Position numbers and translations under genes: made by a program | In this document: one piece after another, positions 1 to 14,600 of the stretch | Numbering within the stretch: position 1 is the stretch's first letter | How the letters are laid out: each line of letters starts with the position of its first letter | The notes under the pieces: generated by a model | Database searches by the model: none | Told to the model about the DNA's origin: nothing | Seen by the model: the letters and a program-made list of their open reading frames with translations, nothing else | Source of the DNA: Escherichia coli | GTDB taxonomy: Bacteria > Pseudomonadota > Gammaproteobacteria > Enterobacterales > Enterobacteriaceae | DNA: 25,066 nt | Assembly (NCBI RefSeq): GCF_003334815.1 | Contig: NZ_QOWO01000048.1 | Strand: one strand, 5' to 3'

Positions 1-39
1 AAAAAATCGGCTCAAACATGAAGAAATGAAATGACTGAG

Positions 40-336
40 TCAGCCGAGAAGAATTTCCCCGCTTATTCGCACCTTCCCTAGGCCATTAGCTAACAAAGCA
101 AGATAATTCGCCCTTAACCTTCTAGCATCAGCAAGTGAGATAGCTGGGAAAGCACCTATCCCTATCATTGTTCTTTTTTTTGTAGTTGGTCGTTGATAGC
201 GAAAGCGCCAGAGTTTTTTACCGTTTGTTTTCACTATCAGAAAAAGCCCATCACCATCATGCAGTGTTAGATCCTTATCTAGCGCTTTAGCACGTAGAAC
301 TTCGGTGTTGCTCAGAGGGCGTGTTGTCCGAGCCAC
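40..336 (-). pseudogene. P4-family (phage-type) tyrosine integrase, N-terminal fragment only (98 aa, then in-frame TGA at 40-42)
   Basis: Translation MARTTRPLSNTEVLRAKALDKDLTLHDGDGLFLIVKTNGKKLWRFRYQRP... matches the N-terminal arm-binding domain pattern of P4-like integrases (DGDGL..L.V...G.K.W.FRY). GTG start at 334-336 preceded by AAGGAG (revcomp of 344-349). Integrases of this family are about 400 aa; no catalytic domain continues in any frame through positions 1-39. Lies directly downstream of the ssrA 3' end, the classical island integration site. Confidence 0.6.
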
Positions 337-354
337 TTGGCCGCTCCTTAATGA

Positions 355-408
355 ATTGGTATACGCGTTTAGGTATACATCCTATCGTATACCTAAACGT
401 ATACCAAT
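355..408. repeat. Near-perfect inverted repeat upstream of the integrase fragment; candidate operator or arm-type site
   Basis: Left arm 355-378 attggtatacgcgtttaggtatac and right arm 387-408 gtatacctaaacgtataccaat are reverse complements apart from a 2-nt indel. Inner perfect 13-bp arms at 366-378 and 387-399, 8-bp spacer atcctatc. Contains four GGTATAC motifs. Confidence 0.7.
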
Positions 409-519
409 AATCACTGGATTTAGCGGGATATCCTCGGACAACGGTAGACACAAAAAAGCCCACAGGGCTTGCGCCATGCGGGCTTTCAGGATTTCTCCGG
501 ACGTATCCGGAAGAGCAAG

Positions 520-882
520 TGGTGGAGCTGGCGGGAGTTGAACCCGCGTCCGAAATTCCTACATCCTCGGTACTACATGCTTAGTCAGTCTTTACATTCG
601 CTTGCCAGCTGCGGACGGACACGCCACTAACAAACTAGCCTGATTAAGTTTTAACGCTTCAACCCCAGGCAGGGCTTCCACGCGATCTCTTTTGGGTTTG
701 ACCTCTCTTGATCCCCGTCCTAAGAGCGGAGGCTAGGGAGAGAGGGCTCTAAGCAGGTTATTAAGCTGCTAAAGCGTAGTTTTCGTCGTTTGCGACTATT
801 TTTTGCGGCTTTTTACGAGGCCAACCGCCCCTCGGCATGCACCTTGGGTTTCGCAAATCCCGTCGAATCCAGAATCAGCCCC
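520..882 (-). ncRNA. ssrA: tmRNA (SsrA, 10Sa RNA), 363 nt
   Basis: Reverse complement reads GGGGCTGATTCTGGATTCGACGGG at the 5' end (882 downward) and ...GTTCAACTCCCGCCAGCTCCACCA at the 3' end (to 520), matching E. coli tmRNA. Internal tag reading frame present. Confidence 0.97.
761..793 (-). other. ssrA: tmRNA tag-peptide reading frame encoding ANDENYALAA plus stop
   Basis: Reverse complement of 761-793 is GCAAACGACGAAAACTACGCTTTAGCAGCTTAA = A N D E N Y A L A A stop, the canonical E. coli degradation tag. Confidence 0.9.
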
Positions 883-12865: not shown

Positions 12866-14092
12866 TTATCTCACCAGCTTTTCGGCACGCTGGTGTTTGG
12901 CCTGATACATATTGTGATCGGCAAGCTCTTGTAATTTTTCCGCAGAGGCGTGCTCAATGGTCATCGCGTAACCAATGCTTAATGTCATGGTGGTCTGATG
13001 GCCATTATGAAGATCAAACGGGAGATTAAAGATTTGTGTCAGTGCTGAACATATCTGCTGCACTTCAGATTCCGACTGTACATCATAGAGCACCATAGCG
13101 AATTCATCGCCGCCCAGGCGGTATGCTTTATGTCGCAGCCCGCCAAATTCAGCTAACCGTTTTGCGATTTCAATCAAGACTCTATCGCCCGTCGCATGAC
13201 CCCAGGTATCATTGATGTATTTGAAATTATCGCCATCAAGAAATAGTAACGCCGACGTTTTTCGGGCATCGGAATTGTTCATCAACGTGTTGATGCCGCT
13301 ACGAAACGCTGCGCGGTTAGCCAGCCCGGTTAATGGGTCATGTAGCGCGGTACGTAGAAGCTGCGCATTTTTAGCCTGTAAACGAAGCTGCCACTCTTCC
13401 ATTTCATCCAGCAGACTGTTGAAGTCGAGAGCGAAGCGGTGAAACTCAGCGATACGTTCTTCCGAAACTCGTCGGGAAAAATTGCGGTTGGAACGCACAT
13501 CATGTACGACATCGGTGATATTTTTCAGCGCTTCTACCAGGCCATTGTGCAAATGGCGGGTGAGGGTAATTGCGATGCCTGATGCCAGCAGAATACAACC
13601 GGTCAGTACGGCGAGCGAAAACCAGATAAAATGGCTGATTGAACTGTCGCGAGCGGTTAAGCGTACTTCGCCAATGGTTTCACCATTGTGACGAATCGGC
13701 TGAATGATGGGGGCAGGGAAGAGCCAGTGGCTTATGAAATTACTGAAAGTATCGCCTGGATCCTTACGGGTGTAATGCCAGGATGCCAGAATATTTTGCT
13801 GCTTATCACGTACTTCTGCAGTTGAAAATTGCCCTTGCTGGCCCAGCGCTGCCAGTGTTTCAGTTGCTGCAGGGCCATCGGCAAAAACGACAGCTGCTTC
13901 CAGACTGTAAGTCATTGTTGCTGCTGTCAGTGCCAGGTTTTTTTGCGCGTACTGTTTCAGGGTCAGCACCGAGGTCACGGAAAGCAGCAACCAGATCAGC
14001 ATCATAGTGATAAATATGCTGGTCATACTGATGTTGCGTAATGCTCTTTTAAACGTGGGGCGCTTATTAAGAGAATTATCGTTATCCATCAT
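12866..14092 (-). CDS. dgcN: Inner-membrane diguanylate cyclase YfiN (DgcN), 408 aa
   Basis: Translation [37 protein letters not shown]... with an N-terminal transmembrane/periplasmic region and a C-terminal GGDEF domain ([12 protein letters not shown]). Confidence 0.93.
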
Positions 14093-14600
14093 TTTTCTTC
14101 CGTGCGAGCATTAAGACATCCGGGTTGACCTTTACACCGCTACGCGATAAGGCATCCAGGTTTACGGCAAATCTGACGTCATTATTGTGGATGATCAGAC
14201 AAAAGGCGCTACCAATAATGCACTCGGTATTTTGTTCGGCAATTAATAATAACGCCTTTGACGGATATTGTTCGGTTAATTCCATCTGGAATGTCGGTGA
14301 CTCGTTGCCAAAATAAAAACCATTGCAGCCTGAAATCATCGCCTCTTGTTGAGTGTGAATGATGACAGGCAGATAAGGCAAAGATGTCGCGGCATTCTCT
14401 TGTAGGGCGGTACTAAAACGTGAAGATGAAAAGATACATAACTTTGGTGGCCCTGATAGCGCAGGCCAGCGGGTGTAACTGACAATACCGGAAACCATCA
14501 TACGCACGTTTTTCGCAACGTCAGAAGGCTCCTGAGCGAGTATTGGTGCTCCCGTCAGCAGGAGAATCAGAAGTAAGAACAGTCGGTGAGAAAAACGCAT
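14082..14600 (-). CDS. yfiR: Periplasmic repressor of YfiN, YfiR, 172 aa
   Basis: Translation [46 protein letters not shown]... with a signal peptide; overlaps the yfiN start by 11 nt. Confidence 0.9.

Follow-up and report, generated by a model that had tools for sequence, protein, structure and literature searches.

A palindrome between ssrA and a truncated integrase gene of Escherichia coli as a predicted cluster of arm-type sites from a P4-like satellite

The inverted repeat located upstream of a truncated integrase gene (int), next to ssrA, in a stretch of Escherichia coli DNA of 25,066 nt (hereafter the window, at its full length) very likely represents the cluster of P' arm-type sites of an ssrA-specific P4-like satellite, and probably works also as an autoregulated int promoter. 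Comparison with related elements leads to a scheme in which each site, of around 10 bp (T-T-R-G-G-T-A-T-A-C), would be recognized by the N-terminal Arm-DNA-bind_3 domain of the integrase. The P' arm would carry two direct sites followed by two inverted ones, and the P arm two direct sites by the alpha/crr replication region, with integrase molecules bridging the arms and the core, i.e. the final ~20 nt of ssrA, in the integration/excision complex. The int promoter would be embedded in the module, with its -35 element in site 1, its -10 element in the 8-bp spacer and the transcription start near site 3; the first two sites would span positions -35 to -13, and the start and leader would lie under sites 3 and 4. 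Given this location of the promoter inside the arm-site module, we propose that bound integrase would also repress its own transcription. We infer binding by Int, the promoter and autorepression from features that are directly observed and described below, namely the layout of the sites, their conservation, their presence on both arms, the geometry of the attachment region, the domain composition of the integrase and, in a sister family, the co-variation of motif and N-terminal domain. The arrangement as such is well known and does not constitute a new mechanism; with respect to P4, the motif and the target are different and there is a sixth site.

Sequence and surroundings of the palindrome

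The element at 355-408 is composed of arms of 24 and 22 nt separated by a spacer of 8 nt (Table 1) and contains four GGTATAC motifs, at positions 358 and 372 of the + strand and 387 and 399 of the - strand. The reverse complement of the right arm is identical to the left arm, save for an additional CG at 365-366, and the stem is A+T-rich. When an indel-tolerant inverted-repeat score was calculated along the window, the palindrome was the top-scoring inverted repeat of the 25 kb, with a value of 18 versus 13 for the runner-up real site, and 13 was also the maximum reached in 100 dinucleotide-preserving shuffles of the whole window. The first-pass annotation of this DNA, which had described a near-perfect inverted repeat with four GGTATAC motifs and a 2-nt indel, and had considered it beyond chance, is therefore borne out in sequence, arms, spacer and score; the surroundings it described also agree with the sequence, which has the GTG start at 336-334, AAGGAG at 349-344 and tmRNA at 520-882, and so does its view of the integrase as a fragment, the gene being interrupted by the end of an IS5 after codon 86.

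Table 1. Coordinates of the attachment-site region in the window; arm-type sites and promoter elements are predictions.
Feature	Position	Strand	Sequence or remark
Palindrome, left arm	355-378		ATTGGTATACGCGTTTAGGTATAC
Palindrome, spacer	379-386		ATCCTATC
Palindrome, right arm	387-408		GTATACCTAAACGTATACCAAT
Predicted arm-type site P'1 (site 1)	399-408	-	ATTGGTATAC on the int-sense strand; holds the -35-like TTGGTA (407-402)
Predicted arm-type site P'2 (site 2)	387-396	-	TTAGGTATAC; 12 nt after P'1
Predicted arm-type site P'3 (site 3)	369-378	+	TTAGGTATAC, inverted
Predicted arm-type site P'4 (site 4)	355-364	+	ATTGGTATAC, inverted; 18 nt before the GTG start
-10-like hexamer TAGGAT of the predicted int promoter	379-384	-	Central spacer; 17 nt after TTGGTA
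Ribosome-binding site of int, AAGGAG	344-349	-	Read from the sequence
Native part of truncated int, codons 1-85/86	82-336	-	ORF 40-336
IS5 end (1-77) and CTAG target site (78-81)	1-81		
Conserved P'-arm blocks	409-447	-	GTCCGAG, ATCC, AAATCCRGTGAT; full stretch TTGTCCGAGGATATCCCGCTAAATCCAGTGATT
Element-supplied intrinsic ssrA terminator	449-486	-	Terminator scan
Attachment-site core	520-539	-	Last ~20 nt of ssrA, ending in CCA
tmRNA (ssrA)	520-882	-	

Beyond the palindrome, a single further copy of GGTATAC exists in the window, at 898. This lone GTATACC (898-904) lies outside the element, next to TATACT, a -10-like sequence in the promoter region of ssrA, and is probably due to chance.

The integrase and its host element

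The minus-strand ORF that begins at the GTG codon extends to position 40 and encodes 98 aa, comprising nearly the whole Arm-DNA-bind_3 domain plus 12 residues encoded by the IS5 end. The assignment to IS5 was made on the basis of an 81-nt stretch that is multi-copy in 1,734 genomes, with an identical copy abutting an annotated IS5 transposase; the IS5/int junction of the window was absent from the complete E. coli genomes in the collection. Because the insertion removed the catalytic part of the integrase, the system in this window is a relic. In intact relatives the gene product is a tyrosine integrase of 397 aa, which presents the organization of a heterobivalent integrase: in a full-length relative, the arm-DNA-binding domain PF13356 (Arm-DNA-bind_3) covers residues 9-91 (E 4.7e-21) and is followed by Phage_int_M and Phage_integrase. 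The family integrase is 36% identical to P4 Int over the full length.

The DNA between the 3' end of ssrA and the int start was found in 387-403 of 5,426 complete E. coli genomes, always adjoining ssrA. Complete relatives correspond to a P4-like satellite of 9.5-11.5 kb with the integrase at its start, and share the gene order int, variable cargo, psu, delta, a gene in the position of sid (annotated as capsid or hypothetical protein), a gene for a Vis-like HTH protein of 88 aa, an icd-like gene, the alpha primase-helicase gene, crr-like iterons and the far junction.

Presence of the motif on both arms and conservation of the sites

The palindrome was sought in other ssrA-associated elements, using loci from viral contigs that had been retrieved by the integrase protein alone. 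The module was found at a constant offset from int in all of the 62 loci with enough upstream DNA. Inside three complete elements, GGTATAC is present only at both ends, with four copies by int and two by alpha. The pair at the far end consists of direct copies, ATTGGTATACG[A/C]TTAGGTATAC, placed just after alpha/crr, so that the 22-nt unit ATTGGTATACGnTTAGGTATAC recurs there, 54-56 nt before an ssrA-3'-like core. When diverged far-junction arms were compared, this unit and the ssrA-like core TTCARACTCCGCCAGC were the sole conserved blocks, the rest being unalignable; at that junction, the P-arm unit precedes a degenerate copy of the core, CARACTCCGCCAGCCCACCA. Unit and core were 56 nt apart in all 27 loci compared, and 41 genomes from other species had spacings of 54-56 nt. 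The far unit was present in 24 of the 80 viral-contig loci; the stored DNA of the others ended before reaching it, the locus being too short or the element larger than the 10-kb flank.

A search for the 22-nt unit in one genome per species (100,044 species) gave 73 exact matches, while ~0.14 would be expected by chance, distributed over many genera of Enterobacterales and Aeromonas. Forty-one of them are P-arm units, with the core 54-56 nt downstream, and 27 are P'-arm units, followed by the inverted copy and the integrase gene. The five remaining matches are truncated or degenerate, four being still recognizable as P or P' classes and one (L139) uncertain. With the doubt on L139, all the matches to the unit in the scanned genomes are thus within such attachment-site arms. 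The motif is distinct from the core, occurs on its P and P' sides, and keeps a fixed distance to it on each, of 54-56 nt (P) and 111 nt (P'). The latter, from the ssrA CCA to site 1, was found in 61 of 71 instances, despite the existence of unrelated versions of the trailer between them.

An alignment of 43 relatives revealed differences among the four sites of the module. Site 4 was invariant in its 10 columns (entropy 0.00), site 1 almost so (0.03), and site 2 in 8 of 10 columns (0.19), whereas flanking columns had entropies of 0.47-0.75. Site 3 was the most variable of the four (0.40), and in around one third of the relatives it is degenerate, with the sequences GTATGCC, GTATCCT or GTTTACC. 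It is this additional copy that makes the module a near-perfect palindrome. The 12-nt period between sites 1 and 2 is common to P4 and to the Klebsiella phage Kp4866-6, whose family is described below.

These data bear on the idea that the palindrome is a product of chance or a neutral repeat, such as the relic of a local duplication and inversion. Palindromes can arise by template switching, and in one clade sites 2 and 3 have changed in a concerted manner (TATTGG / CCAATA), which would fit with such an origin. However, the score exceeds that of every shuffled sequence, the outer sites remain invariant while their flanks diverge, and the module is found in 62 of 62 relatives and is spread over many Enterobacterales genera and Aeromonas. 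A chance or neutral origin would thus be effectively refuted by conservation, and we give it a negligible probability.

The blocks at 409-447, between the ssrA terminator and site 1, are also kept across the 43 relatives and can be recognized in P4 and in the Aeromonas elements. They include a direct ATCCRG repeat, with ~10 nt between copies, and are a candidate site for an accessory factor, e.g. IHF or a Vis-like excisionase; a search with the strict IHF consensus WATCARNNNNTTR gave no match in either arm of the relative L011. Around 487-519, the ssrA 3' end, the trailer and the terminator are all brought by the element. At least three unrelated versions of the trailer exist among the relatives in alignment A4, most of them with a small CCGGATACGTCCGG hairpin.

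A predicted int promoter inside the palindrome

On the int-sense strand, TTGGTA in site 1 and TAGGAT in the spacer form a sigma-70-like element with a 17-nt gap, entirely contained in the palindrome. Among 28 variants of the module, positions 1, 2, 5 and 6 of the -10-like hexamer (TA..AT) are invariant, positions 3 and 4 are only G or A, and the gap is constant. A promoter scan identified TTGGTA-17-TAAAAT in L064 and TTGGTA-17-TAGAAT in L023 as the only promoter-like site of the intergenic region, whereas TTGGTA-17-TAGGAT of the window, which matches 8 of 12 consensus positions, falls below the cut-off of the scan. P4 lacks a good equivalent of the spacer hexamer: its sequence at these positions is TTGGGG-17-TTAACT, with a poor -10, so that P4 does not corroborate this placement of the promoter.

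According to the accounts that PMC2951348 and PMC7286903 give of the work of Piazzolla (2006), P4 Int represses its own gene by direct binding to DNA near the int start site, and the integrases of KplE1 (IntS) and PAI I536 likewise autorepress (PMC2951348, PMC7286903). From the report on P4 and the conserved promoter-like element found inside the palindrome we infer that autorepression by the integrase through this promoter is likely.

The first-pass annotation had also suggested a hairpin insulating the island from ssrA read-through. More generally, such a hairpin could form in RNA, blocking read-through or sequestering the int ribosome-binding site, or in DNA as a cruciform. The folding of the int-sense RNA agrees with it: a long hairpin forms, the 121 nt having a minimum free energy of -42.2 kcal/mol (z -4.1), and in the fold of lowest energy its helix reaches in the direction of the ribosome-binding site. 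Yet ssrA already has its own separate terminator at 449-486, and the palindrome is not followed by a T-run on either strand, as the first reading of the sequence had correctly remarked. The terminator scan detected the ssrA terminator (456-470) and, within the IS5 end, another terminator-like hairpin (33-45); at the palindrome it found nothing with the features of an intrinsic terminator. With respect to structure conservation, one pair was changed on both sides in the 28 variants, a result equalled by 126 of 500 shuffles, and the covariation term given by RNAalifold was -0.36 of -35.1 kcal/mol, the compensatory changes being in the terminator helix only; site 3 decays with no change in its partner, site 2. 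A search in Rfam gave only tmRNA above threshold, while the palindrome produced miRNA-like matches with 24.7 bits, versus a gathering score of 81, so that it has neither a match to a curated model nor significant covariation. An mRNA initiated at the predicted promoter would hold only half of the palindrome, and conservation is just as high for the half-unit of the far arm, which is unable to form a hairpin. The insulating hairpin thus finds no backing in these data, and we consider a hairpin function of any of these kinds very improbable.

Arm motifs and the integrase N-terminal domain in other families

A de novo detector was applied to the 150 nt upstream of int, looking for a direct pair of 7-mers spaced 11-14 nt and an inverted copy within 60 nt. 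The families of Kp4866-6 and P4 were collected by separate searches with the respective integrases. The layout was present in 61 of 62 loci of the GGTATAC family; in 70 of 77 loci of the Kp4866-6 type, whose integrase is 57% identical and also associated with ssrA, with TTAGGCACC or TAGGCCC as the motif; and in 29 of 45 loci of the P4 family, with TTGGGGGC in close relatives and other motifs in distant ones. None of 2,440 shuffled controls showed it. The layout also accompanies the integrase into elements that are not P4-like, namely a Klebsiella phage of 45 kb and an island of E. coli that carries helicase and DUF2290 genes.

Within the Kp4866-6 family (L254-L333) two motif classes could be distinguished, GGCACC in 31 loci and GGCCC in 24, and the switch from one to the other affects the three sites at once. 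Twelve protein columns discriminate between the classes, and ten of them are located in the first 95 of 413 residues, where ~2.8 would be expected. This enrichment may correspond to a single recombination block; even so, the class-specific residues would link the domain that binds the arms with the motif found there. In L321, of the Kp4866-6 type (74% identity), the motif is a third one, GGTACC, of which several inverted copies exist.

Overall identity of the N-terminal domain was tried as a predictor of the motif and failed: integrases from Aeromonas (~37% identical, 47% in the N-terminal domain) retain the identical 22-nt GGTATAC unit, while the 57%-identical integrase of Kp4866-6 is associated with a different one. 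In L118 (Aeromonas veronii) and L151 (A. taiwanensis), the 22-nt unit is accompanied by one inverted CGTATACCAAT overlapping the int ATG, and the integrases share the N-terminal peptide MPRTTRPLS with that of E. coli. A 56-nt partial match in the E. coli locus H30 was first taken for a second palindrome, and is actually a fragment of the ssrA terminator adjoining a different ssrA-type integrase; it was this locus that supplied the TTAGGCACC comparison.

The independence between motif choice and overall Int identity would also be expected if the palindrome served as operator for a different, element-encoded regulator (a Vis/AlpA-like HTH protein or another dimeric repressor), with no binding of the integrase to it. 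A dimeric repressor would agree with the dyad symmetry and with the position over the predicted promoter, the elements encode the 88-aa HTH protein, which resembles P4 Vis, and the latter has been reported to down-regulate int (PMC2951348). Several observations are difficult to reconcile with this possibility, to which we assign a low probability. The unit on the other arm stands as a lone direct pair, remote from any promoter and with a constant spacing to the core, the layout also goes with the integrase family in elements unlike P4, and the motif switch in the sister family of Kp4866-6 maps to the N-terminal domain of Int. As for P4, its authors suggested, according to the account in PMC2951348, that Vis acts on int mRNA and not on the repeats.

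The first-pass annotation had contemplated both an operator for a dimeric regulator of int and integrase arm-type sites retained in attL. Part of the former stands, since the promoter-like element inside the palindrome agrees with an operator effect, although the regulator would likely be the integrase itself. The latter is favored by the sites on the other arm, the P4-like geometry, the arm-binding domain and the co-variation in the sister family.

A further, rather unlikely idea considers an exchangeable cassette, formed by the arm sites together with the N-terminus of the integrase, that would move between otherwise unrelated integrases, with the corollary that a truncated gene such as that of the window would yield a free arm-binding domain. 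The sequence M-A/P-R-T-T-R-P-L-S is present at the integrase N-terminus in every GGTATAC user examined. If correct, the cassette would explain the identical 22-bp unit associated with ~37%-identical integrases, from Escherichia to Aeromonas, and the free domain could occupy the sites of incoming related satellites, behaving as a dominant-negative immunity factor or a stand-alone repressor.

Comparison with known attachment sites

The closest parallel to the predicted arm-type cluster is found in P4, whose record (NC_001609) is annotated with 'attP arm sequence repeats' (Pierson & Kahn 1987, as listed in PMC7286903). It includes two direct 12-mers by crr, a 20-bp core that corresponds to the 3' end of tRNA-Leu, and, adjoining the int start, three 12-mers, two of them direct and one inverted (NC_001609). 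Both systems thus share two direct repeats with a 12-nt period on the P arm, two direct repeats and inverted repetition of the motif on the P' arm, and a core that consists of the 20 terminal nt of a tRNA-like gene, with CCA at its end. Distances are also alike: the first P' repeat lies 111 nt away from the core in P4 as well as here, and the P repeats 55 nt (P4) or 56 nt (here). The 54-bp P' modules can be aligned free of gaps, the single inverted repeat of P4, ATGTGCCCCCAA, aligning with site P'4, and upstream blocks AAATCC and TCCGAG are common to both. The integrases are homologous, and both have the arm-binding domain. In contrast, the motif is GGGGGCA in P4 and GGTATAC here, the target is tRNA-Leu in P4 and ssrA here, and P4 has no counterpart of site 3, so that there are six sites here versus five attP-proximal ones in P4, whose record shows one further repeat inside int.

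In attL/PintS of KplE1 (CPS-53), the int promoter overlaps the arm-type sites of IntS and is negatively autoregulated, and an embedded, autoregulated int promoter has been predicted to be general for integrases associated with tRNA genes (PMC2951348). As in KplE1, int is transcribed here away from a tRNA-type gene, and the promoter, in our case a predicted one, is embedded in the P' arm sites; the repressor is Int, together with the RDF, in KplE1, and would be Int here. KplE1 differs in belonging to another integrase lineage and element, in its TAAA-containing consensus and in its target, argW, and it has been studied experimentally, the arrangement in the GGTATAC family being predicted from sequence.

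The attP of phage lambda carries the arm-type sites P1, P2 and P'1-P'3. There, too, the integrase is heterobivalent, and the sites for its N-terminal domain are distinct from the core, located on both sides of it and in mixed orientations. The N-terminal domain belongs to another Pfam family, and the number and spacing of the sites are different. Lambda int is transcribed toward att, with no control through the arm sites.

Implications for the satellite lineage at ssrA

This analysis provides coordinates for the core, the six predicted arm sites and the predicted int promoter (Pint) of a common lineage of ssrA-targeting satellites with variable anti-phage cargo, harbored by ~7% of complete E. 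coli genomes and also found in Aeromonas and many Enterobacterales. The att coordinates and the 22-bp unit can help delimit P4-like elements in annotation, and the natural pairs of motif and N-terminal domain (GGTATAC, GGCACC, GGCCC and GGGGGCA) are of use for the study or re-engineering of arm-site specificity in integrases of the P4 family.

P4-like satellites and their variable cargo region have been described before (PMC8628076, PMC9122126). The cargo between int and psu differs in nearly all the relatives fetched (L002, L004, L007-L010, L011, L019, L020), and includes genes for DUF4435 plus an AAA ATPase, SIR2 plus an ATP-binding protein, a DEAD/DEAH helicase, a restriction endonuclease, a DNA methyltransferase or DUF4747. 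This variability next to int fits with the defence hotspot published for P4. As in P4, two crr-like repeats are found before the far junction of L011, at 13,700-13,980 and 14,135-14,320, with GGTGAACA iterons and a separation of ~180 nt. Directly past that junction there is a second ssrA-like trailer with its terminator, followed by a second, different integrase, which indicates that elements are arrayed in tandem at ssrA.
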